Positions 1 through 19,199 of a stretch of DNA of 64,000 bases are shown piece after piece; the first letter of the stretch is position 1, and each line of letters starts with the position of its first letter. The notes beneath the pieces are model-generated. The model had not been told where the DNA came from. It ran no database searches and saw only the letters and a list, made by a program, of their open reading frames with translations. The DNA is taken from positions 1,178,001 to 1,242,000 of the forward strand of contig MU057711.1 in the NCBI GenBank assembly GCA_013265495.1, given 5' to 3'. A program made the position numbers and the translations under genes. Source of the DNA: Vicugna vicugna (taxonomy: Eukaryota).

Positions 1-2097
1 TCACAAGGTCTGGCTTCTCTGTTCCTCAGGCTGGTTTTCCTACACATCTGGGCCTTATTTTCTAGCTTTGTAGTGGCAAGAAAGGGGCAGCAACTCCGTC
101 TCCCTAGTTCCAGCTGCACTCCCTGGGGAGAACATTGCTGCTTTCTCTCCTAGACCCCCAGGAGAAGATTCACCATATCCAGGAGAGGATGCACCGTATC
201 TCGCTGGCTCAGCTTCTCTCTCATGTCAAATGTGGTGGCTGTAGGCTGGCTGCAGCTGCTATGGCCCTGCTTGGCTCTGCTGGGCTCCTCACCACGTATC
301 TTCCCATTCAGGGGTAGGAACAGTCTTTATGTCCCTATGTCACCAGGAAACTGAGCTGACCTATACAGTCAATCTGAAGCTTCTGCTCAGATGTGTTGGG
401 TCATGACCACTTACATTCTATTGGTCAAAGTCATCCACCCAGCTAAGACAGTACCATAGAGGCTGGGAGGTATGCTCTTTCCATGGAGGGAGAGGTGAGT
501 GAGCATTTGCAGACAGTAGCAGACTCAACCATAGCTCCCAACCTATATAAGCCAAGAGGGAAAAGGGGAGATTTTGCAAAGGAAAACTAGGGTACAATTT
601 GATGGAAGGAGGGTAAAGATCAGTCATCCTCCTTTGATTATAATCCCCCCCCCCATCCAGTCATTGAAATGTCTCTACCACCAAAGATATCACGCACCCT
701 CTGTTCCCAAATGAAGGGACTTGTAACCTGCAGGGGCAGACTATTTTGTATTTTAATTGCTCTGCCATCTCTCCAGGAAAAATAAATAGTGAAAAGTCTT
801 TCTTTAGCTCAAGCTATGCTATGGGCTTATACAAAAGGAAGTTGGGGAGAAAGGTGAAAAAATGACTTAGGACTCATTTTGGGAGCTTCACTGCAAGGAA
901 AAAGAAAGAAAGAAGCAAGGTGTGGAAGGAAAAAGCAAGATAGAAAACCATTCTCTCAAGAGCTCTTCATTCTAATCTGTGCAGAGCAATGAAAATACTT
1001 GCCACCCATACATCTTTTAGATCTGAGTAATGGATTTGTGAGCAAAGGCGGGAGTCTTGGTCAGTGCAGAGGGCAGAGTGCTTGAGCAATGGGAACATGA
1101 CTTCCTTCTCTTTGATGTGCATTTGGATGAACTATTTACTTGCACTTGCTTTTAATTTACTGGCCAACAATTACAGCTGGCTAACAGGCCAACAGGCTGG
1201 CACGATGCACCCAATTATCTCCTGAAAATGTATTTCTGTGATTGGAGCTTTAATTGCAGATTAAATCAAATGCTCATGAACCCAGTCACCATTGAGGGAA
1301 TGAGACCAGCTAATGGAATAATGAGAGTTCTGACTCCAATTCAGAGGTAGAGGGACATGGGGAAAAGAGATTTGTTTTCTTCTTCTTCTTCTTTTTTCTT
1401 AAAAATTGTCTTTGAAAATATGGATGCCATAAACCCTACCAGAAGGCAGTGATGTTATGAAATGGGCAGCTTGCTCCAATCAGACCACAAATGGAACACG
1501 AGACTGTTCTGTTTCCTGGGAGTCACTCTCACATCTGCCTGCTTGGGTTGGTGTGGGTGCCAAGGTTGGCACTCCCATTACTGCAGATCAAACAGCTACG
1601 TCTTTGAATTTCAAATTCGCTGAACAGGTGAACAGATTTTCCTCTCTGAATACCTTCATCTGCTGATCTCAGATGTAGAGCATTGCTGCAGGGTCACATG
1701 GGGAAGGAGCCTGTGTCCCTGGGACTGATTCATTTATGCAGATGTGACATATGCCCAGAGCCCATAAGCCAGAGGCAACTTTCCCTGCTAACTCATGGCG
1801 CTTAATTCAGATTACTCCCCTCTTATGAAGAGCCAATTTGCCAATTATCCCTGAAATTTCTGATTAGGTGCCTTTTACCTAAGATACTGTGCCGTGGGCT
1901 GTGGACTTCTGAGGTTTATTTAATTCCCTCTGAAAGATGACTGGGGCTTGGCTGAGAATCACAAGCAAGCCACCCTTTTCTGGTACAAGCCAGTCTTTTT
2001 TTTTTTCTTAGAGGTCTTGTACCTTTGGGTTTGCATCTGGACAACGTGGATTATAAACAGCAACAGCAACAACTGTAATAGCTACCGTTTATCTAGT

Positions 2098-2276
2098 GAA
2101 GTGGTTGTCTTTCTAGTTGCAAATTAGAACCACCTAGGGAGTCTTGAAAAGTACTGATGCTCAAGTTCCCACCTCCAGAGGTTCCAGTTTCATGGGTCTG
2201 AGCTGGGGACTGGGCATTAATATTTTTAAAAGCTCCCGGGGTGATTCTAGTGAGTGCCCAGGATTACAAATCATTC
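2098..2276. mobile_element. MER5A-like hAT-Charlie MITE inserted in a MIR (2060-2460)
   Basis: TTAGAACCACCTAGGGAG...GGTCTGAGCTGGGGACTGGGCATTAATATTTTTAAAAGCTCCCGGGGTGATTCTA. Confidence 0.8.
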
Positions 2277-3445
2277 ATTTCATGTCTACAATGTGCCAGG
2301 AAATGTGCAAAAAGATTTACACATAGTCACAGGAACTTGAATGAGGTAGGTATTATCCCTATTTTATAGACAGGGAAACGATGCCCAGAAAAATTTAGTA
2401 ACTCATCCAAGATCACCCAGCTAGTAGGTGGTGATGACAGAATATTGAGATTAGGTTCTCCAAAGTGCAGGAGAGATACAAGCACAGGGTGTTGGGACTG
2501 TTTGAAGTTTGAAGACCAGGGGAATTGAGACAGCCCGTAAACTGATGGAAGAAACAGGTGAGTGGCAGTGTTCTCCTTTTCCAGAAATAGGTGTGAGGAT
2601 ACACACGTAGTGCAATGTGAATGCACCATGCCTTTAGCTCAGCACAAAGCAGGAGATTTTACCCGGTTTCCATGAAGTACAGTTTACCCATGAATTTGAG
2701 AGATGCCTGAAAAGAGAGCTCTGTGTCCTCCTCTCTTTCCAGAAGAGCTGGTATTTGTCAGATAGATCTTTCTTTTCTCCTTCTGCCCTATAGAGGGAGA
2801 AGCCCTCCTTTTCTTGCTGTTGCACTCAAAAGGGAGCTGGGAGAAGCATCGAATGGCAACACAGAAAAGTCACATTTTGGGAGAGGGATGGCTGATGGGT
2901 GCTTTGGCAGGTGGGTTGGGACTGAAAGTGACCAAGGATAAAACAAGGGGATACTTCAGGCTGGCAGTGTACGTGAGGAGGGGTGGGGGTGGTGGGCTGT
3001 GAATCTGAATTGTTTTGAAAACCAGCTACAGAGACTAGCCTCTAGGTCTGACCACAGAGGAGCTTGGCCACTGTAGCATCTTACCCTCTGTTGTCAAAGG
3101 GACCAGCCCTGGCACTGGCTAAGGCTTTGCTTTTTGTCTTATCATCTTTGTGTTCAGTGCTCCTTACTACTATTTCTTACCCACTTGTCTCCCTGTCATG
3201 CTGTGCTGGTTGAAAGAACACCCATATGTTTGAGAAATGCCTTGGCCATGGATGTGGGGGCTGAGCAGGAAACAGACATGAGTTATCGTTTTGCCCTTCT
3301 GTCTCTATTCTTCTTGTTCCACATGCCAAGGATTACTTCTTGGGGGTAGACCAGCCATTCTAGAATCTTTTACCTGCCTTGCTCACTGATACATATCCAG
3401 TACAGTGCCTGGGACATAGTAGGAGCTGAATAAATACATATGTAT

Positions 3446-3613
3446 ATTTTTCAATGAAGTATGGTCAGTTACAATGTGTCAATTTCTGGTACACAGCATA
3501 ATGTCCCAGTCATGCATATACATATATACATATATATATTCATTTTAATATTCTTTTTCATTAAAGGTTATTATAAGATAATGAATACAGCACAGAGAAC
3601 TATATTCAATATC
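3446..3613 (-). mobile_element. Short young L1 3' end with a 5' inversion, inserted in an L2 tail
   Basis: Shares sequence with the element at 31537-31691 (GTCAGTTACAATGTGTCAATTTCTGGT). The last 26 bp are in the opposite orientation. Confidence 0.8.
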
Positions 3614-6021
3614 GGTAAATATATTTAAATGAATGGATAAATAAATGGAATGCAAGGAAAATAGGAGAATCACAGAATCAGCAACCCAGGACTTATGAAC
3701 ACCAGAAGCCATCAGAAGAAAAGTCTCCTACTTCTCCACTGGCACAGTGGTGTCATGTGGAGGTGGGATGTAGGATTGCCATGAAATGTCCCAGATTTTA
3801 TCCTCCACCCTTTCCAACATCCACTTACAAGTGAGGTGGAGTCGCATTGTGGAATCAGTGTGATTCTATATCTTTGCATGTTAAAATGAAATAATACCTC
3901 TCTCAAAGAGTTTTGGAAGGATTGAAAGAAGTAGTACCTGTACATTGCCTATCATAGTTCTCAGCAAATGCATTGAGCATAGTAAATGCTTAATGAACAG
4001 TAGTTAATAATTATTATCAAGAAGTAAGGTATGGTATGCCCCGTTGGCCCTGCATCCTAGGGACAATTTATCTATGACCTTTTAGTTAACTAGTTGTATT
4101 CTTCTAAGCCTTTTTACTCCCATTTACATTCATTTTCTTATTTCACTACCTATACTGAGTGCTGCTTAGCCAGACTCAGAGCTAGATTCTGGGGATGTAA
4201 TAATAAACAAGACAGAGTGTTCCCTGCTGCAATACCGGGGTGCTTCCCATGGAGATGACAGAGCCCATGTCCCAGGAGCCTCCCTTGGAGATCCTCCCAC
4301 TTCTCTCTGGTCATGGGGAATACCTGGCCTTCCTGTCACACAACTATAATGTCAATAACTTGACTCAGCTTGATTGGTGGCATCCACAATAGGAGGTGGA
4401 GAGCCACTCTTCCCTCTGTGGGAATGCTCTTTCCCTAGGACCTTGTTTGGCTCACCCCCTCTTCACTCAGAACTCCACACAAATGGTGCTTCCCAGGGCA
4501 GGGGGTGGGGTGGAATTTCTGTATCCCAATTCACTCTGCCCCATCACTCTGTGTTACATCACCTATTCTATTTTCTTCATAGCACCCATCAATGTCCAGT
4601 GATATTTTATTCATACAACCCTTTATTTGTATATAGTCTGTCTCCCTTTCTAGAATATAACCTCCATGAGGTCAGGGACAATATATACCCTTTTAATAGT
4701 TGGTACCATTGTACTTAGAAGGGCGACCGGCATATCATTATTTGATACATGATTGTGATTGAAAGTCTTTATGGTCTGTCTCCAAACTCCCAGAGGCTGC
4801 TTTGGGCATCTCCCAGAGCTTCTGGAAGGTAGAATTTTCTCTTGCAGGTTGAGAAGGGGTTCTTTTGACAATAGAGTCAAAGAAATCAGCCGTAACCAGT
4901 GGAGTTGACAGTGTCCTTTTAAGAGCTGGCATGGAACATTTGATAAAAATACAGTGAGAGATCAGAGCACAATGAATCATATTTAGGAGAAAATCTCTTT
5001 TGAAAAGCCCAGGGTAGGTCATGTTTTTTTCATGCTTGTCAACTTGGCTGAATAATTTGCTTAAAATAAATGGACGAGAATGGTAAGTTGCTATGTAAGG
5101 GAAATGAAACAGACTCCTAGCTTTGTGTGCAACACATTTCAGCTTCTGAAGGGTCTGGCTTGGGTGGTGGCGAGCTTTGTGGGTGGGGAGGTGGTTCATG
5201 AATTTAGACAGGTTTAATGTCTTCCTGGCTTCAGCACAAGATTTCTGGGGCATCAGCACATTAGCCAATTTCCAATGCAAACAGATTTGATCCATCACTG
5301 GTGTTGAAGAAAAGCCCTACCCCTCAGATCTGTCAGGTTCTCAAACATGAGCCAAATGAGTTAATATCTTCTCATTGTTGTCTTTATTAAGCCTTTGTTA
5401 AGCCAATCTTGAATAATGATGTGTCCCTGTCAGAGGTCTTTTAATAAAGTAAGGGTTGCTTTATATAACTTCTCCAGGGAGAACGCTGTGTCTTTAAAAT
5501 TGCAGGGAGCCACAATGTCCAGAATGTAAGCAGCAAGGCTAATCCCCACAGCACTGGGCCTGAGATTTTAGCAGCAGACCAAGGAGCAGCTCAGAATTTG
5601 TGGCACAGGCTTTGGAGGCAATATGCACAGGAAGCTAGATTTGGATGTCCTGTGGGCAGTAGAGGGAGGGGTTGGATGCTCTGGTGGCTGGGACAATGTA
5701 GGCTTAGTGCCTGTCTTACCACCATGGGAGATCCAGTTCGTGACTTAGTGCCAATGCCGTGGCACAGGGACAAATGGAGAAAAACCACATGGACTGGCCC
5801 AGTTCTCTTTGCCTCCACCTGTCTACAGATAGGGATGCGAGTCTCTGGGAAACCCACATTTGGTTTATTAGCAGTTCACAGCTTGCTCACCAGGCCCAAC
5901 CTGCCAGGACAGAGCTCAGTTTCTAAAATTGTCCCTCCTTCCTCCTTTTGTCAAGCTCCCCTTGCTGTCACCTAACCATTTTGCTGTAAAGAGCTGATAA
6001 ACAAAATCATACTAATGACTC

Positions 6022-11387: not shown

Positions 11388-11400
11388 AGGGGTAAAATTA

Positions 11401-13294
11401 GAGGATTTCCGGTCAAGATGGCAGAATGATAGGACCAAGAACTTGCCTCTCCCCACGACTGCAATGAAACCACAACTGAATGCTAAACAACCATCAAAAA
11501 AAGACTGGAACCTAGCAAAAAAGACCTTCTGCAACTGGAAACATAAAGAGGGAATCAGAGCAAGAAGGTAGGAGGGGCATGCTCATGATATAATTGGGCC
11601 CCAAACCCCTTGGCTATGTGACCCACAAGCTGAAGATTTGTTAAGTTGCAGAGGCCCTCCCACAGGAATGAGAGCTCTAAGCCCCACATAAGGCTCCCCA
11701 GCCCAGGTCCTGGCATTGGGAAGAGAAGGAGACCCCAGGACATCTGGTTTTGAAGGCCAGGAGGGCTTGGCTCTGGAACCCTCTTGGGACTGGGGGAAAC
11801 GGAGACTCCATTCACTTGAGAAGCATACACGGAAACTCACGTGCATAGGTCCAAGGACAGAGCCAGTGATTTCATAGTAACCTGGGCCAGGCCTGCCTGC
11901 TGGATTTGGAGGGTCTTCTGAGGACAAGAGGGAAAGCTGGGACTCACTCAGGGGACATAAATGCTGGTGGCGGACATTCTGGGAGTGTTAATCTACATGA
12001 GCTTCCTTGGAGGCTGACACCTTGATTGGATCATTAGAACCAAGACCTAGCCCCACCCAACAGCCTTTAGAGAAGCCTCAGGCCAAACAACATACAGGGT
12101 GGGAACACAGCCACACCCATCAGCAGACTTCCTAAGTCACAAAGGCCTCTAGACACAGCCCTACCCACCAGAGGTCCAGGACCAAGCTTCACCCAGCAGA
12201 GGGCAGGCACTGGCTCCTCCTGCCAAAAACCTGCATAAGCCTCTAGTCCAGCCTCATCCAGCAGGGGCAGTTACTAGAAATAAGAAAACAATAATTCCAA
12301 AGCCTTTGGAAAGAATCCACAAACACGTAGAAAGATAGACGATATCAGATGGCAAAGGAATATCTACCAGGCCAAGGCACAAGATAAAACTCAGAAGAAG
12401 AAATAGGTGATGAGGAGGTAGGTAATTTATCTGAGAAAGAATTTAAAGTAATGATGGCCAAGATGTTCAGAGAAATCAAGAGGAGTATAGATGCACAGAG
12501 CGAAGTTTTTAGCAAAGAGTTGGAAAATATAAAGAATACCGAGAGTTGAAGAATAAAAATGAGTGAAATGAACAATACACTAGAAGGAACCAAGAATAGA
12601 CTAAATGAAGCAGAAGAACGGATCAGTGAGCTAAGAAGACAGATTAGTGGAAATCACTACTTCTGAACAGAAAAAAGAAAAAAGAATAAAAAGGAATGAG
12701 AATGGTTTAAGAGAACTCTGGGACATCATGAAGTGCTCTAATATTCGCATTATAGGGGTCCCAGAAAGAGAAGAGAGAGAGCAAAGACCTGAGAAAATTT
12801 TTGGAGAGATAATAACTGAAAACTTCCCCAACTTGGGAAAGGAAACAGTCACCCGAGTCCTGGAAGCACAGAGAGTACTGCACTGGATCAACCCAAAGAA
12901 AAACACAACAAAGTATATAGTCACCAAATTGACAACAATTAAGGATAAGGAGGAAATATTAAAATTAGCAAGAGAAAAGCAACAAATAACATACGAGGGA
13001 GCTCACATAAGGTTATCAGCTGATTTTTCAGAAGAAACTCTACAGGCCAGAAGGGAGTGGCACAATATATTTAAAATGATGCAAGGGGGAAACTTACAAA
13101 CAAGAATACTCTATACAGCAAGGCTCTCCTTCAGACCTGATGGAGAAGTCAAAAGCTTCACAGATAAACAAAAGCTAAAATATTTTAGCACCAACAAACC
13201 AGCTTTATAACAAATGTTAAAGGACCTTCCCTAGTCATTAAACCATAAAAGAGAACAAAAAGAAGAAAGAGAAAAACAAAAGGGACCTATAAAA
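11401..13294 (+). mobile_element. LINE-1 5' half (5' UTR, disrupted ORF1, inter-ORF region)
   Basis: Begins GAGGATTTCCGGTCAAGATGGC, containing the YY1-type motif typical of L1 5' ends. ORF 12647-13210 reads as L1 ORF1p (LRELWDIMKCSNIRIIGVPE, ENFPNL, IRLSADFSEETLQARREW). The N-terminal coiled-coil part (from ~12349) is out of frame or stopped. Confidence 0.95.
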
Positions 13295-13570
13295 GATTGC
13301 TTTGGCTTTTTGAGTCTTTTGTGGTTCCTTATAAATTGTGGAATTGTTTGTTCTAGTTCTTTGAGGAATGTTGCAAGTATTTTGATGCGGGTTGTGTTGG
13401 ATCTGTGGATTGCTTTGGGGAGTGTGGCCATTTTGATAGTGTTGATTCTTCCAATTCAAGAGCACAAGAAATCTTTCCATTTCTTTGTGTCATTTCAGTT
13501 TTCAGAGTATAGGTAACCTCCTTGGTTAAGTTCATTTCTTGGACTTTTGTTGTTTTTAATGTAATGGAAA
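13295..13570 (-). mobile_element. LINE-1 ORF2 fragment (post-RT region)
   Basis: Minus-strand translations MNLTKEV and MATLPKAIHRSNTTRIKILATFLKELEQTIPQFIRNHKR match L1 ORF2p (MAILPKAIYRFNAIPIK...ELEQ..LKFIWNHKR). Confidence 0.9.
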
Positions 13571-13627
13571 TATCTCTGCCAGTTATAAAATTCTGGGTTT
13601 TGAAGTGAAAAAAAGGTGAATGAAGGG

Positions 13628-13825
13628 CTGCAAATGGCAAAATATCCTCCTTTTTAATGGGTGAGTTGTATTTCATTACATGTCTATATATATACACATA
13701 TGCTGCATCTCCATTATCTACTCAACTATTGATGTGCACTTAGGATGCTTCCATATCTTGGCAATTATAAATAATGTTGCTGTTAATAGCAGGGTATATG
13801 TATCTTTCTGAGTTAATTCTTATTT
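13628..13825 (-). mobile_element. LINE-1 ORF2 C-terminal fragment
   Basis: Minus strand reads MKYNSPIKKEDILPFAA, matching the L1 [17 protein letters not shown] motif. Confidence 0.85.
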
Positions 13826-13949
13826 TGTGGTTGGCTTTATTCCTTTGATAACTATGTAAGTTTAAAAAGCTAAATCTCTAAACATTCTTTAAAACAATGA
13901 ACAGAACATATATGTAAATTAAAAGATAAATGTGCAGTAAACAAAAAAG

Positions 13950-14275
13950 ATCAAGCCATGAAAGCCATAGAAGAAACTTAAAAGACATATTACTAAATGA
14001 AAGAAGCCAGTCTCAAAGGACTACAAACTTATGATTCCAACCAAATGACATTCTGGAAAAGGCACAGCTACAGAAACAATAAAAAGATCGTGGTTTCCAG
14101 GGGTTTGGTGGTGGGGGAGGGAGGAATGAATAGATGGAGCACAAGGGATTTTTAGGGGAATGAAATTATTCTGTATGATACTATAGTGGCTACATGTCAT
14201 TATGCACTTGTCAAAACCCACAGAATGTACAACATCAAGAGTAAACCCTAATGTAAACTATGAAAAAAAAAAAGA
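13950..14275 (+). mobile_element. Old L1 (L1MC-like) 3' UTR fragment
   Basis: TAAATGAAAGAAGCCAGTCTCAAAGG...TGACATTCTGGAAAAGGC...AACCCTAATGTAAACTATG followed by an A-run; typical L1M 3' end. Confidence 0.8.
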
Positions 14276-15290
14276 ACTAATTCCTGAGTCAAACTAACGC
14301 TAAAGGGTTTGGAAGAAAAGTGGAAACCATCAGCGGAGTCACAGAAGGAAAGGCCAGTCAGTTCATAAAAAAACAGAAGCCAACAACAAAAACAATTATA
14401 AAAATGGTACAATGCATTGAACTGGAATCTATATCATGGAAGCATTTCAAAGAGAAAGAGAGACTGACTGTGTCAAATGAAGCTGATAAAGAAAAGTGTA
14501 GATTGAGAAATCTTTTTTTCCCATGATAGAATTATTCTAAAATGGGATTGTGGGGGAGACACAACTCTGCACATTCACACACACAAACAAAAGAATTTTG
14601 AATTTAAATGAGTGAATTTATGGCATGTAAATTATACCTCAAGAAACCTCTTCCAAAATGAAGGAGTGTTTAGCAGAGATTTACTCAACAGAGCTGCTCC
14701 CAGGTATGCATCTCACAGGGTAAATGAAAACAGATATTTAGAAAACAGATGCATGTATATATATAATCAAAAATATTTATTCATAATAACCCACACTTGA
14801 ACTAACCCAAATGTCCATTATTAAGAGAATAGATTAATATTTTGTGATATAATCTTACAAGGTCAAATTATTCAGCCCTACAAACTGAATGGCATATTCA
14901 AATAAAAACATGTAGCTCTAAAAACATTACTTAGAGCAAAAGAGACAGATATCAAAGTATACATTGTGATTTTTTTTCATTTTCATCAAGTTCAGCCACC
15001 ATCAGACTGATGGATGCATGTTGTGAGAGTGTGTGTGTTTCTACTGAAATGTGACAGAGGGTATATGTTCTGTGTTAATGGATGTGATTCAAACATGTGG
15101 TTCATACACTGACTTTTCCGATACTGTTGAGGGTTAGGAATTTTAAAGATTTGTGAAATCATAAACTTTACATTGACACATTTCACTTTATTTTTTATGG
15201 TATACAAATACAAACAAAAAAAAGAGGTCAGAAAAAATTGCCATTAGACAATAATGGAGAAAATGATATTTTAGTTACAACCCTCTCCTC

Positions 15291-15360
15291 TGACAGCCAC
15301 GCCTCCTCCCCACCGACACTGACCAGATAACTGACCAATCCAGGACGTCAGTTGGGTTCC
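15291..15360 (+). promoter_or_regulatory. Candidate proximal promoter of the cTAGE-like retrogene
   Basis: GCCACGCCTC (Sp/KLF GC-box-like) at 15296-15305, CCAAT at 15335-15339 and GGACGTCA (CRE-like, 7/8 match) at 15343-15350. All lie within 60 bp, about 100-150 bp upstream of the ATG, at an abrupt AT-rich to GC-rich transition. Confidence 0.45.
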
Positions 15361-15445
15361 AGGTGGAATGTTGGGGTGTCCTCTGGGGCTTGTTGTGGCT
15401 GGTGGCTCCATGGTAACTGGGCAGAGCCCTGGGTGGGTCAGTGCC

Positions 15446-16213
15446 ATGGAGGGGCTCCTGTCTTCTGTGGAGCTTGGCTTTGGGCTGATCCTTAGGAAGC
15501 TGAGTGTGGTCCTGGTTTTGCTGCTGTTCAATGGCCTGTGTTCTCAGTTCATGTTCCGGAGCCTCCAGTGGGAGACAGCGTTGAGTCTACCTGTCCTCAC
15601 CTTATTGCTGGGTGTCTCATTTACTTTCAGACTTATTCAGTCTGTTAGAAGTCAACTTAACAGAAGACATGAAAAGCAACTGGCAAAAACACTCACAGCA
15701 CAGATTAAGAAGAAATGCCACCTCATCGACCAGCTTTGTGTGGCTAAAAAGGATCATGCCAAGATGGAGACAACTGTAAAGAGTGCAAGGCTAGAGAAGG
15801 AGCCAGTAAATATACCCAGCCTTGCTGACACTTATACAAAGTTGATGACGATCAACCTGAGCTCGAGGAAGGAAATCAGTTTTCTCATCCAAGAACTGAA
15901 GAAAGAGAGATCCTTACAGTCTATACAGGAAGAGATGGTGGAGACACTAAAAGTGCTCAAGTTCCTGGAAGAGATCATGAGACTCAGCACATCACAAGGG
16001 GCTTTTACACACCAGCCAGGGGACCGAGCACCAAGTCCTGATGGTCCCTTTCCCAGGAGTGGGCCCTCGTCAAGCTGCGCTGTTCCCTCCGCTCAGGCCT
16101 CCCAAGCTGCCAGGCTGCATTCACTCACTCAGTCAGATCCCCACCTGAGCTGCACTGAGGCCAGAGGAGGGAGGACAAGCCCCTCCTTTGGACCAGAGTT
16201 CCTCAAACTTTAA
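15446..16213 (+). CDS. Intronless cTAGE5/MIA2 (cTAGE family)-derived retrogene, 255 aa: hydrophobic/TM segment, coiled coil, short Pro/Ser-rich tail
   Basis: Open frame 15368-16213; the ATG at 15446 has GCCATGG context. The translation is collinear with the cTAGE5 N-terminus as I recall it: ME..GLIL..L..V, WE, RLIQSVRSQL....EKQLAKTL (cf. RSFRSVRSRL....EKKLALML), ARLEKE (cf. ASFEKE), SLADTYTKL (cf. SLEATCEKL), EISFLIQELKKERS (cf. EILCLEKELKEEKS), SQGA (cf. SQVA). No introns, whereas the parent gene is multi-exon. In-frame upstream ATGs lie at 15368 and 15410. Confidence 0.8.
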   Translation: MEGLLSSVELGFGLILRKLSVVLVLLLFNGLCSQFMFRSLQWETALSLPVLTLLLGVSFTFRLIQSVRSQLNRRHEKQLAKTLTAQIKKKCHLIDQLCVAKKDHAKMETTVKSARLEKEPVNIPSLADTYTKLMTINLSSRKEISFLIQELKKERSLQSIQEEMVETLKVLKFLEEIMRLSTSQGAFTHQPGDRAPSPDGPFPRSGPSSSCAVPSAQASQAARLHSLTQSDPHLSCTEARGGRTSPSFGPEFLKL

Positions 16214-16742
16214 CAGTGAGCACAGCAGTGCGCTCCTTCATGGTCAACATCCCTCATCCAAAACATACTGGAACTCCCAAAACACACCATGAAGCGTGTT
16301 TTTTTTTTTTTTATGTCCAGCAAATGTTTGGATTATCTCTTATTAGTTGTGAAAGAAATGTTGTAATTGAAACTGATCTTCTACTTAGTTTGAATTATAT
16401 TAAGCCTCATTTCTCAAGACAGTTTGGGTAACTATCATATATCAGCAATGCAAGTGAAGTGTATATATAGTTATTCTCTATATATTATATTTGTATTATA
16501 GTATAAATATTGCATTATAATTTTAAAATGTATGCAATTTGTCAATATAAACTTTTAGATGGCCATAGCATTTATTTCTAGAGTTTAATTCTGAAGTCAT
16601 AAGTTTAAGTCAAAGAGCCTTTTTCACCTGAGTATGTATAGTTCAAAAAAAATAGATGAACTTTTTAAAGACGAAGCTAAATTGTACTCTTAGAAGAAAC
16701 TTTTATCGTTTAATTTTTATATTCTGTTATAGCAATACCCAT

Positions 16743-16754
16743 AATAAAAATAAA
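16743..16754 (+). terminator. Tandem AATAAA polyadenylation signals of the retrogene
   Basis: AATAAA at 16743-16748 and 16749-16754, at the end of a ~530-nt AT-rich 3' UTR and about 14-20 nt before a short A-run at 16768. Confidence 0.55.
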
Positions 16755-19199
16755 TTTGATAAATTTTAAAAAATTACATTGAGGATAGATGTGGTGTGAA
16801 ACATACACACGTGCTCAGAAAAGCTGCTCTGGGCCAGTCTGATGGTACTTTGGTGATGCTGGGTAATACTTGGTAATTGTCAGCTGTTGGGTAAAGCTAT
16901 TGGGTGACCCTTGGTCCTTGCTTTCTATGCCATTTGCATTGAGCTCTGGGATGCTCTCCATTCTCCTCTGCATCTCCTTAACAACTCCTGATGGCCTAGT
17001 CTTGGGACTCCCTTTTCCTCAGGCTCCCTTGGGCCGCTAGGGCTGAGGATGCCTTTGCGGAGCTAGTATGAGCTCATCATGTCTTGGCTGGGGTCAGGGC
17101 AGTGCAGTTGGTTTTCGCTGAGGCCAGGCTTGTGGGTTACAGTGTCTGCCCCTACCTCGCAGAAAGTGAGGCTAGAACATAGCAGTAAATACACAGGACA
17201 TCACCCTTTTAAATCGCAGGACTGGATCTTTGGCTCCCCGACATTAGGTACTCAAAAACAGCTCTGGCAAACAGTCAAACATTCACACAGAAGACCAGAA
17301 AAGACAACATCTACAAAGAATTGGGAGACAACTCACAGCTTTCCTGGAAGAATCTCTTTGGAGGTGGTCTTGTCAGGCTCTGTGCCTCCGGGCAGACTGA
17401 CCCTAGCCCAACCTCAGAATGGTGGAAGCCTCAGGCCTCGGACCCCTGCCTCCTCCCTGGATCCCCCCACAGGTCATGGGAAGGCTAACCCACCATTCCA
17501 ACAGCAAAGCCCCATGGTTTGCTTTGGGGCTGGGAACCTTGGGGCTGGGGCCTTGGAAACCCCTCACCTGCTTCTCCCCTCCCTGGCAAATGTCTCTTTA
17601 TCAGTTCCCAACGATCAGCTTCTCAGAGATCTTCTGGCTTTTATTTTCTCCCCATGAACATTATCTATTTGTCCAATTCATTCTGAAAATAGCCTGGCCC
17701 AGCCATCCCATAATGCCCCTAGCCTGTGTCACTCAAAACAGGGGCCCTGCAGGAGCTCCGAGCTCTTCTTCCTGTCCTTTCTCTTCTTTAATAAGCAGAC
17801 CCCGGGCTTCAGTCAATGCGTTTCCTCCAGATTCATGAGTTGGCTGCTTCTGCAGCGGCCCTAGATCCTGCAGATAAATCTCCCCCGGAGATGTCAACAC
17901 AGATAGAGGGGAACAGCTCCACCGGATCCTCAGAGAGGGGACCATGGAGACACCAGATTTATTACCCACCCTGTCCCTTAGGGTGTCTCCTCCTTGACCT
18001 TCAGGAAGAAGAAGGGCCAGTGTACAGTTTTTGCTGCCAGGGACTGAGATGCCAAAGGCGCTGCCTCCAGAGATGCCCTCCCTGCTTGTCCTTGGTGACA
18101 AGTGGAGAGCCCGGTTGTGGAAGATGGTAGGTGAGGGGCCTTAGCCCCCCAAGGAAGGGATGGCCATGCTGCTGGCCTTGCTGGGGACTCGCCGCTGCTG
18201 GAGGGAAATGCACTGATTTCTAGCCCTGCTCTCCAGGGTCACTCTGGGTTAGTTTTAGCTGCTTCTCTGCCCCTGGACGGGCCACACATTTTTCCTCCTT
18301 AGCCGCATCCAAGGCTCTCTTCTCGCACAGCCCCAGCACCCGCCCAAGCAAAATTGAGACACGTGCTTATGACAGTGTGTTTCCATGAAGACAGATCGCT
18401 CTCTCTCCAAGGTCAAAGCTCCCGCTGGCCAGGCTCTTTGGCAAATGATTCGTCAAACAGGGCAGCGGGCAGCAGAGAGTCAGCTCTCAGGCCCCTGGCT
18501 GGTCGACACGTCAAAACCTTTCAGAGGATTATTGTGCCCTGTAGAACTTTTCTCCTTCCACTGTCTGTCTGGGCCTCCCCTGCTGGCCCCCCCGACATGG
18601 AGGGATGAGTTGGCGCAGTATCAGAAATTATGACAGGGACCCAGAAGGCAAAACAAATCCTTCTGCAGAAATTGGGAAATTTCTCAGTCATTTTCCAAGG
18701 CAAGAGCCGTGGCCTCTTGTGAGATTTAAAAAACAGGACAGCAAAGACATTGTGCTTGTCCGCTTACTCGTCAGGCTCCCACATCTGCAAGCGGGACTGC
18801 GTCTTGTTCGCCACCGGCCCTTAGCACAGGGCTGGCTTTTGTAAACTTGTGTATGTACTCATGTGTTTACTATTTATTAAATGTCTACTATTAGCCTGGC
18901 CCTGGGCACAGAGTTCCTGTCCTCATGGAGCTTACTGCCTTGTAGAAGCTCTCACTCCATAACGAGGGGAAGGACATATAAAGGTATTAATGGATTCAGA
19001 GATGTTACAAAGTTTACTCTGGGAGGCACCCTCGAAACCACACCCAGGGACCCGGCCTCTGAAACTTGAGCCCTCCTGTGACGCCCTCCCCTCCTGGAGG
19101 GGTCCTCCTTTCTGAGGAATGGAAGACAGCATAAGCGATAGCACATCACTGTGAAGATGATTTAAAACGTGACTTCCCTGCTTGTCACTGATCTCTCCC

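Follow-up and report, generated by a model that had tools for sequence, protein, structure and literature searches.

A stretch of 64,000 nucleotides of the vicuña genome (Vicugna vicugna, GenBank assembly GCA_013265495.1, contig MU057711.1, positions 1,178,001 to 1,242,000), in the following called the window and numbered from its first letter, contains a long open reading frame (ORF) at 15446-16213. We consider it probable that this frame is the coding part of one young, stop-lost copy of a multi-copy family of short genes, which derives from cTAGE5, an isoform of MIA2, and was amplified as cargo of L1 3' transduction. The window copy is most likely open mainly due to its youth and drifts neutrally, and a function of this copy is unlikely. 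The original prediction, made from the letters of the sequence alone, had taken the frame for a single preserved retrogene. This was not supported, as at least 160 protein matches were found in the same genome and the frame is carried on an L1-derived composite.

The open frame and its homology to cTAGE5

On the plus strand, a stop-free frame extends from stop to stop over 15335-16213 (292 codons), with in-frame ATG codons at 15368 (281 codons) and 15446 (255 amino acids, protein P0001). A 281-codon stop-free frame, the longest of the window, with a strong Kozak context at the second ATG had been predicted, and all three points were borne out: 281 codons were counted from the ATG at 15368 to 16213, the next longest of the 11 stop-to-stop frames of at least 150 amino acids in the window hold 205 and 196 amino acids, and around the ATG at 15446 both -3 and +4 are occupied by G. 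The ORF region forms an island richer in GC (0.44-0.52) between AT-rich flanks. The hydropathy of P0001 reaches its maximum at residues 16-31 and a second one at residues 54-55, aligned with the anchor of the parent cTAGE5. An AlphaFold model with a mean pLDDT of 63 predicted helices at residues 4-28, 47-117 and 124-185 and a disordered tail, in which the read-through stretch 210-255 showed a pLDDT of about 40. The hydrophobic segments followed by a coiled-coil-like region, as noticed before from the letters, are compatible with the two hydropathy maxima and the two long predicted helices. A search of Pfam, which is without a model for this region, gave no family at cut-off, and both there and in a sequence search of the PDB only sub-threshold chance matches were obtained.

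Homology was analyzed with a profile built from 10 family proteins in an exhaustive HMMER search. Using E<=1e-3 as threshold, 251 proteins were matched. Raccoon dog MIA2 isoform X4 (806 amino acids, cTAGE5-type) was aligned over residues 2-194 with an E-value of 1.1e-25, and among the names looked up were also MIA2 of lizards and a turtle and a crocodilian 'cTAGE family member 5'. BLASTP of P0001 against the raccoon dog isoform X4 showed 31% identity over 196 amino acids from Met1 (E 4e-19), the comparison of the family with cTAGE5-type MIA2 by hhalign gave a probability of 99.5%, and a lead from the ESM Atlas agreed (TANGO1 homologue 0.90, MIA2-like 0.89). The predicted collinearity with the N-terminus of cTAGE5 and the predicted low identity to the parent were thus both confirmed, and with a significant BLASTP match the possibility of a frame without any hit to cTAGE5/MIA2 falls away. 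A word-indexed search found 12 relatives among proteins of similar length, all of them unnamed or 'hypothetical/uncharacterized' camel proteins with at most 70% identity, and no relative among longer proteins; MIA2/cTAGE5 appeared only in the exhaustive profile search. No protein identical or nearly identical to P0001 was present in the public collection, where the best match reached 69%.

In this genome, the exons of the parent MIA2 locus are scattered over C10971:691973-742481 (at least 50 kb), and amino acids 20-76 alone occupy one of them. Over amino acids 1-193 the family ORF runs without interruption, where the parent locus has introns, and it is therefore a processed, intronless derivative of the short cTAGE5 transcript. 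The intronless nature of the frame had been predicted correctly. As judged from these alignments, the family ORF derives from the cTAGE5 isoform of MIA2.

In human cTAGE5, the first coiled coil (coil 1, amino acids 61-300) directly binds Sec12, while the second one (coil 2, 301-650) binds TANGO1 and the proline-rich domain (651-804) binds Sec23/24, as described in the available part of PMC4164946. The alignment of P0001 stops at parent residues 192-195, with no match beyond in BLASTP and hhalign. Like cTAGE5, which belongs to the TANGO1 family, the family protein is collinear from Met1 through the hydrophobic anchor and into coil 1, of which about 130 of the 240 residues are kept. Unlike cTAGE5, it stops at a point corresponding to about residue 192, carries a Pro-rich tail of about 20 amino acids of its own, has no introns and exists in many copies. 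By alignment, the TANGO1-binding coil 2 and the C-terminal proline-rich domain are absent, so that the family is without the TANGO1- and Sec23/24-binding modules. A kinship of the tail with cTAGE5 was considered and rejected, as its sole match, 18 amino acids to parent residues 516-533, was not significant (E 0.54). Elsewhere in the genome, stop-free single-frame matches to MIA2 residues of about 184-515 (29-41% identity) were seen at C7434:331084-332064, C8258:6139663-6140478, C4677:2683393-2683989 and C9598:4390686-4391345. These may represent further intronless copies of the cTAGE5/MIA2 type or coiled-coil genes of no relation, and their frame lengths are perhaps inflated by N runs.

The end of the frame distinguishes the window copy from the rest of the family. 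The family frame, as aligned in 20 and in 10 copies, ends with RSGPS and a C, Y or S, followed by TAA or, in one copy, TGA, and the majority reading is 209 codons plus stop. At this position other copies show T[ACG]T/TCT and TAA (TGA in one copy), and the window copy alone is without three bases (TTA), plus five more further on. Since the canonical TAA is deleted, residues 210-255 of P0001 are translated 3' untranslated region (3'UTR). The 255-amino-acid protein that had been proposed stood in so far as the frame is open from 15446; residues 210-255 are not family protein and were created by the 3-bp deletion of the stop. In the sister L002 (C4354), 17 of 617 ORF positions differ and the TAA is kept, so that the stop loss in the window is recent and private.

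A dispersed unit built on an L1 derivative

The ORF had been placed outside any repeat, which was wrong. It lies within a dispersed repeat unit of 5.36 kb (11407-16769), the last 2.5 kb of which are non-L1 DNA. The unit and its borders are composed as follows, where TSD stands for target-site duplication.

11394..11406, plus strand: 5' TSD AAAATTAGAGGAT, abutting the unit (flank alignment)
11407..14262, plus strand: ORF2-less L1 derivative, HAL1-like, with L1 5' end/UTR, decayed ORF1 (open part 12635-13210) and a 1,052-bp 3' portion
14263..14274, plus strand: A12 run at the junction of L1 and transduced DNA (sequence; the abundant L1 matches stop at 14262)
14275..15445, plus strand: transduced upstream flank and 5'UTR of the cTAGE5-like gene, common to composite copies
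15446..16072, plus strand: family-conserved coding part of 209 codons; homology to cTAGE5-isoform MIA2 covers its residues 1 to about 192 and is followed by a short Pro-rich tail
16073..16213, plus strand: read-through into the former 3'UTR, 46 codons and TAA, after a private 3-bp deletion between 16071 and 16072 plus a 5-bp deletion further on
16214..16769, plus strand: 3'UTR, AATAAA signals at 16743-16754, 3' end shared by the copies (sequence, copy ends)
16770..16786, plus strand: 3' TSD AAAATTA-CATT-GAGGAT (flank alignment)

The L1 ORF1 domains Transposase_22 (1e-16) and Tnp_22_dsRBD (1e-18) and the trimerisation domain (1.7e-4) were found in the unit with Pfam. None of the 19 ORF fragments within 13249-15327 reached the Pfam cut-off or matched a reverse transcriptase or endonuclease, and only 1,052 bp lie between the end of ORF1 and the L1 3' end. 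A self-BLAST of the unit versus the rest of the window yielded one weak match, and the identity of the L1 part was set by genome-wide comparison. The segment 11407-14262 is collinear at 87-89% with the unrelated locus L060 (C5810:2595200-2599300, positions 990-3780). A genome search with the L1 part gave 8573 first-look candidates; of the 40 places that were scored, 34 match only 13211-14262. The same layout at L060 and the thousands of candidates point to an abundant ORF2-less L1 of the HAL1 kind. At L060 the L1 continues past the point equivalent to 14262, so that the L1 part of the unit ends early, at a premature poly(A). HAL1 elements have ORF1 only and occur throughout mammals, according to the available part of PMC13756887. 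The driver of the unit resembles them in having an L1 5'UTR and ORF1, no ORF2 and a high abundance, and was likened to them by this layout.

All 19 loci compared with the window share DNA far past the ORF, and 18 of them end at window 16763-16776 (L001 2818-2831). For eight of the 19, the shared DNA starts within the flank compared, each at a point of its own, and two of these starts lie at the A-run junction. When 8 loci were extended to 10 kb, 5 reached 11404-11415 and 3 began at 12316, 12353 and 12730. The TSD of the window copy measures 13 bp, and its 5' and 3' copies are equal apart from a 4-bp insertion. By alignment score alone this match would be weak, since 29 of 500 shuffles score as high, and its weight comes from directly abutting both ends of the unit. 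At other full-length copies, a TSD of 17 bp with one mismatch (L025), an exact one of 13 bp (L027), a low-complexity match only (L028) and none (L024) were observed, which leaves convincing TSDs in 3 of the 5 copies examined (window, L025, L027). The constant 3' end at the downstream poly(A) signal, the graded 5' truncation, the short A tails, the TSDs and the dispersal across numerous contigs together indicate L1-mediated retrotransposition of a read-through transcript, and the unit is probably an L1 3' transduction composite.

The mechanism of L1 3' transduction is described in the available parts of PMC13756887 and PMC9311842. As there, a weak poly(A) site was read through, downstream DNA was copied, and the copies end at a poly(A) signal, carry TSDs and are truncated at their 5' ends. 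The present case differs in its driver, which is without ORF2, and in its cargo, a whole promoter-bearing gene of 2.5 kb. Furthermore, the same transduction is found in dozens of copies, so that the composite acts like a retroelement family of its own. A non-autonomous L1 derivative would have copied an entire gene together with its promoter dozens of times, a way of expanding gene families which is documented mainly in a few primate cases. Gene duplication through retroelement-mediated transduction has reportedly been seen with SVA and AMAC1.

Copy number was estimated by translating the 2.03-Gb assembly that holds the window in all six frames and searching it with P0001; 149 of 546 candidates were scored. 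The protein matches mentioned above, at least 160 at E<=10, showed identities of 32-86%, and about 120 distinct places were counted by hand among 150 matches listed. A DNA search with the 3'UTR only gave 83 candidates, and 40 of the 40 scored ones match at 82-88%. Apparent open frames of 918, 568 and 550 amino acids beside three genome matches were discarded as N-gap artefacts. Copies without the L1 part exist as well (L032, L033) and share window DNA from 14735 or 14909 onward, from which it follows that the gene is older than its capture by L1. L032 (C2580:40000-49999) is a tandem array that repeats about every 5.28 kb, has no L1 part and shows 83.6% identity from one unit to the next; its ORF is a distant family member with about 40% amino acid identity, frameshifted near amino acid 150. 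Similar tandem arrays were seen on C868, C9603, C6368 and C2405, mostly small unplaced contigs. A further tandem pair, L055/L056 (C5308:413700-416350 and 424109-426810), lies about 10 kb apart and belongs to a divergent subfamily that is free of the L1 part. In both members the frame is open over 316 codons and the canonical stop is missing; the two differ by 1.0% in the ORF and are about 90% identical over 155 amino acids to the unnamed proteins P0009 and P0022. Within the flank shared with the L1-less copies, window 14780-14990 looks by eye like an old decayed L1 3' fragment in plus orientation, which would suggest that the ancestral short gene sat beside L1 debris.

The following course of events would account for the composite. 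An old processed copy of the short (cTAGE5) MIA2 transcript may have become a gene of about 209 codons with an N-terminal helix, the hydrophobic anchor, about half of coil 1 and a Pro-rich tail of about 20 amino acids. One such gene would have come to lie 1.17 kb downstream of an ORF2-less HAL1-like L1, and transcripts, presumably driven by the L1 promoter, would have read through from the L1 5' end to the gene's own poly(A) signal. As the driver is without ORF2, mobilisation would have occurred in trans: the L1 machinery, probably by means of L1 ORF2p, would have reverse-transcribed and inserted the read-through RNAs, giving dozens of 5.4-kb composites as well as 5'-truncated forms.

Selection, neutral drift and transcription

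Two samples of copies were used in order to judge the state of the family ORF. The first, 40 copies chosen for their protein score, is biased to intact frames. Of these, 15 were intact (205-216 codons) and 17 broken, while 8 were nearly intact, having lost the stop, gained a late one at codon 194 or begun with ACG. The second comprised 39 loci other than the window, picked by 3'UTR similarity, with the ORF state obtained by cross-reading earlier results; 7 were intact, 3 carried only a late CGA>TGA stop, and 29 were broken, truncated or unknown. A rough neutral model combined terminal branch lengths from maximum likelihood (ML), the stop fraction from the mutation spectrum of the flanks and private flank indels. 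With a mean probability of 0.094 it predicted 3.7 intact copies of 39, compared with the 7 observed (p 0.069). For private substitutions, omega was about 1.01 in the 17 broken copies (120 nonsynonymous (N) and 41 synonymous (S) changes, 10 stops), about 0.78 in the 15 intact copies (77 N, 34 S; p 0.14) and 1.21 in the nearly intact ones (21 N, 6 S). Substitution divergence of ORF and flanks was equal in the 40-copy alignment.

The terminal branch of the window copy measures 0.009 substitutions per site (ML), with 0 N and 2 S as private changes in the ORF and 11 of 1217 in the flanks. On a private branch as short as this, an open frame is expected by chance with a probability of about 0.6, according to our own arithmetic with flank rates. 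Compared to the sister L002, the divergences of ORF (2.8%) and flank (2.2%) are alike. The open frame, which had been taken for the sign of a preserved retrogene, does not support this view on a branch of such length, and 0 N and 2 S are too few for a test of it. An open frame within a young repeat copy is no evidence of a preserved gene.

Frameshifts in the family gather at the purine (GA)n tract GAACTGAAGAAAGAGAGA at window 15899-15916 (codons about 152-158), a hot spot. In 6 of 7 extra copies, indels of -2, -4, -6, +2, +2 and -14 lie within or beside this tract, and L061 shows a 5-bp deletion a little downstream. Many copies are split near amino acids 152-160, for which a frameshifted master copy was considered; it was rejected, because the indel sizes differ and the events are independent slippages. 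A mosaic pattern of divergence was observed in the pairs L009/L040, L008/L053, L014/L016, L013/L042 and window/L004, with the ORF 3-6x less diverged than the flanks in some pairs and 1.5x more in others. One member of the pair L008/L053 is broken. Mosaic pairs including a broken member point to gene conversion or recombinant sources and weaken simple dN/dS readings; the pattern suggests ectopic gene conversion or recombinant source elements.

Four of 24 runs were examined for transcription, and contigs were placed on the window from three of them, namely X1, X2 (RNA-Seq, 'reproductive system') and X9 (metatranscriptomic RNA). The depth of X9 was 0-1.15 in the 12 bins upstream of 15344, 28 in 15344-15430, 66-921 over 15431-16213 and zero after 16474. 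That of X2 was 0-51 upstream and 38-574 over the ORF. X1, the kind of which was guessed, covers the flanks too and may be DNA. The contigs were short and mostly 95-99% alike, and at several sites all of them differ from the window. Loose ends of X2 and X9 at 16071 continue with the canonical stop-bearing sequence; contigs breaking there carry the canonical stop and hence come from other copies. No RNA specific to the deletion junction 16071|16072 was found in the contigs examined. About 100 bp before the ATG at 15446 lie the sequences CCAAT (15335-15339) and GACGTCA (15344-15350), which we take to be a CCAAT box and a CRE-like motif. Family members are transcribed, apparently from a local promoter region rather than only from L1. 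Among 20 aligned copies, the CpG of the CRE-like motif was kept in the window copy, L004 and L006, the others showing GATGTCA, GATATCA or GATGTTA. A 7-bp deletion just after this motif is common to the window copy and L004.

Several observations weigh against a neutrally drifting transduced copy. When the 3 late-stop copies are counted as intact, 10 of 39 copies exceed the neutral expectation (p 0.003). Pairwise omega (NG86) had a median of 0.53 in 18 copies with an intact or open frame. In the 40-copy alignment, indels occur at 1.3/kb in the ORF (48% in-frame) versus 8.6-10.3/kb in the flanks (9-10% in-frame), which is 6-8x rarer; this depletion is not to be taken at face value, since these copies were picked by protein score and those picked by 3'UTR are mostly broken. 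Between window and L002 an N:S of 8:9 was found, fewer N than neutral (p 0.015). The window copy has retained the CpG of the CRE-like motif, where most copies have TG. Contigs at least 99% alike to the window made up 47 of 144 in X2 and 32 of 105 in X9, so that transcription of the window copy itself is possible and compatible with the contigs. Finally, a source locus, with the transduced DNA running into unique sequence, was not identified, no search aimed at one having been made. The N:S of 8:9 possibly reflects some constraint on the sub-lineage or on its source. The simplest reading of all these data is moderate constraint on the source genes, followed by essentially neutral decay after insertion.

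Part of these findings would also fit a preserved, fast-evolving and functional cTAGE5 retrogene at the window locus, which encodes a 255-amino-acid membrane protein of the endoplasmic reticulum (ER) and is expressed, e.g., in testis. The open frame has a strong start context, the CCAAT and CRE-like motifs are intact, N is reduced relative to the sister (8:9, p 0.015), the family-wide omega is about 0.5, and family RNA with a 5' edge near 15350-15430 is present in the reproductive-system library. We nevertheless regard such a retrogene as improbable, because the locus is one of more than 100 copies, its canonical stop is deleted, the extra 46 amino acids are predicted-disordered 3'UTR, the branch of 0.009 makes openness expected, and ORF and flank divergence are equal (2.8% vs 2.2%). 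The contigs that break at 16071 carry the canonical stop, and the best public match of 69% argues in the same direction. A locus-specific function as such was not supported either, in view of the deleted stop and of the junction-specific RNA not seen in the contigs examined; the N:S of 8:9 gives a hint of constraint only.

The same question arises for the family as a whole. Many of its members, possibly including the window copy, would be functional host genes if the lineage had expanded a germline modulator of ER exit sites in parallel to primate CTAGE. Primate CTAGE genes are reported to have expanded following a retroposition and to evolve under positive selection (available part of PMC4949931). 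Intact frames of 205-216 codons in 15 of the 40 protein-picked and 7 of the 39 3'UTR-picked copies, the excess of 10 intact or nearly intact copies over the neutral expectation and the RNA in two RNA studies point this way. They are opposed by the omega of 0.78 for private changes in intact copies, which is not significantly non-neutral, by the 29 of 39 copies of the unbiased sample found broken, truncated or unknown, and by the mosaic divergence, which with its broken-member pair L008/L053 speaks for gene conversion or recombinant sources and not for selection. Overall, an expansion of functional host genes appears unlikely to us.

It is plausible that some family members are functional as putative ER-membrane proteins with half of the Sec12-binding coil in reproductive tissue, and a modulation of ER exit sites by short cTAGE5-derived proteins would be conceivable in germ cells. 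A wider reading can be put forward only tentatively: an ORF2-less L1 may have captured a complete, promoter-bearing, germline-expressed cTAGE5-derived gene and made it the cargo of a composite retroelement that propagates itself, with about 100 copies in a camelid-type genome, of which a substantial minority would be kept open and transcribed in reproductive tissue. If true, truncated ER-exit-site (Sec12-binding) proteins would have been multiplied here by a retrotransposon, in convergence with the expansion of primate CTAGE.

Related genes in other mammals

Homologues with the same tail motif were found in a bat (226 amino acids, 42% identity) and in a tree shrew (253 amino acids, labelled 'CTAGE8', 42% identity), and low-quality models of ground squirrel also matched in the profile search. 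P0004 reached at most 62% identity in the vicuña genome, which assigns the unnamed proteins P0004-P0008 of 199-211 amino acids to other species. With homologues in bat, tree shrew and squirrel, the short form is old and the L1-borne burst lineage-specific. Judged by this species range, the founding retroposition is old, and several mammalian orders have short cTAGE5-derived genes with the putative anchor and half of the Sec12-binding coil, but no TANGO1- or Sec23-binding parts. The cTAGE retrocopies had been thought of as primate expansions in the original prediction; the present family is restricted neither to camelids nor to primates.

The primate CTAGE copies are near full length, about 750-780 amino acids, and were expanded by DNA-based duplication. 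In contrast, the genes described here have about 209 codons, predate this lineage and spread as L1-derived cargo. Both families share the retroposition of a cTAGE5 mRNA followed by lineage-specific expansion; for the primate genes (CTAGE1/4/6/8/9/15), an ancestral retroposition, subsequent DNA duplications and positive selection are described in the available part of PMC4949931. The literature searched on cTAGE retrocopies contained only the primate CTAGE expansion and no description of the present family or its L1 vehicle.

The age of the short form bears on a further explanation, according to which the cargo ORF was kept open for the composite element itself: translation of the ORF, or the protein made from it, would favour the capture of L1 ORF2p or the retrotransposition of the RNA, and selection would have acted on the element and not on the host. 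Conservation of the ORF on internal branches during amplification, with an omega of about 0.5 between copies versus about 1 for private changes, the excess of in-frame indels and the start of full-length copies at the L1 5' end would be in agreement with this. The indel sample is biased, however, and the bat and tree shrew homologues with the same tail, together with the L1-less L032 and L033, show an ORF which is older than the composite and was conserved without it. We know of no precedent for such a cis requirement of a cargo ORF and consider element-level selection very improbable.

The public camel gene models of the family deserve a warning for annotators, as they appear chimeric or duplicated. 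P0002, P0003 and P0012 look mis-built: one of them contains the N-terminus twice, and in two the first 40-50 residues are joined to Gly/Ala-rich sequence of no relation, after which the model returns to the family ORF.

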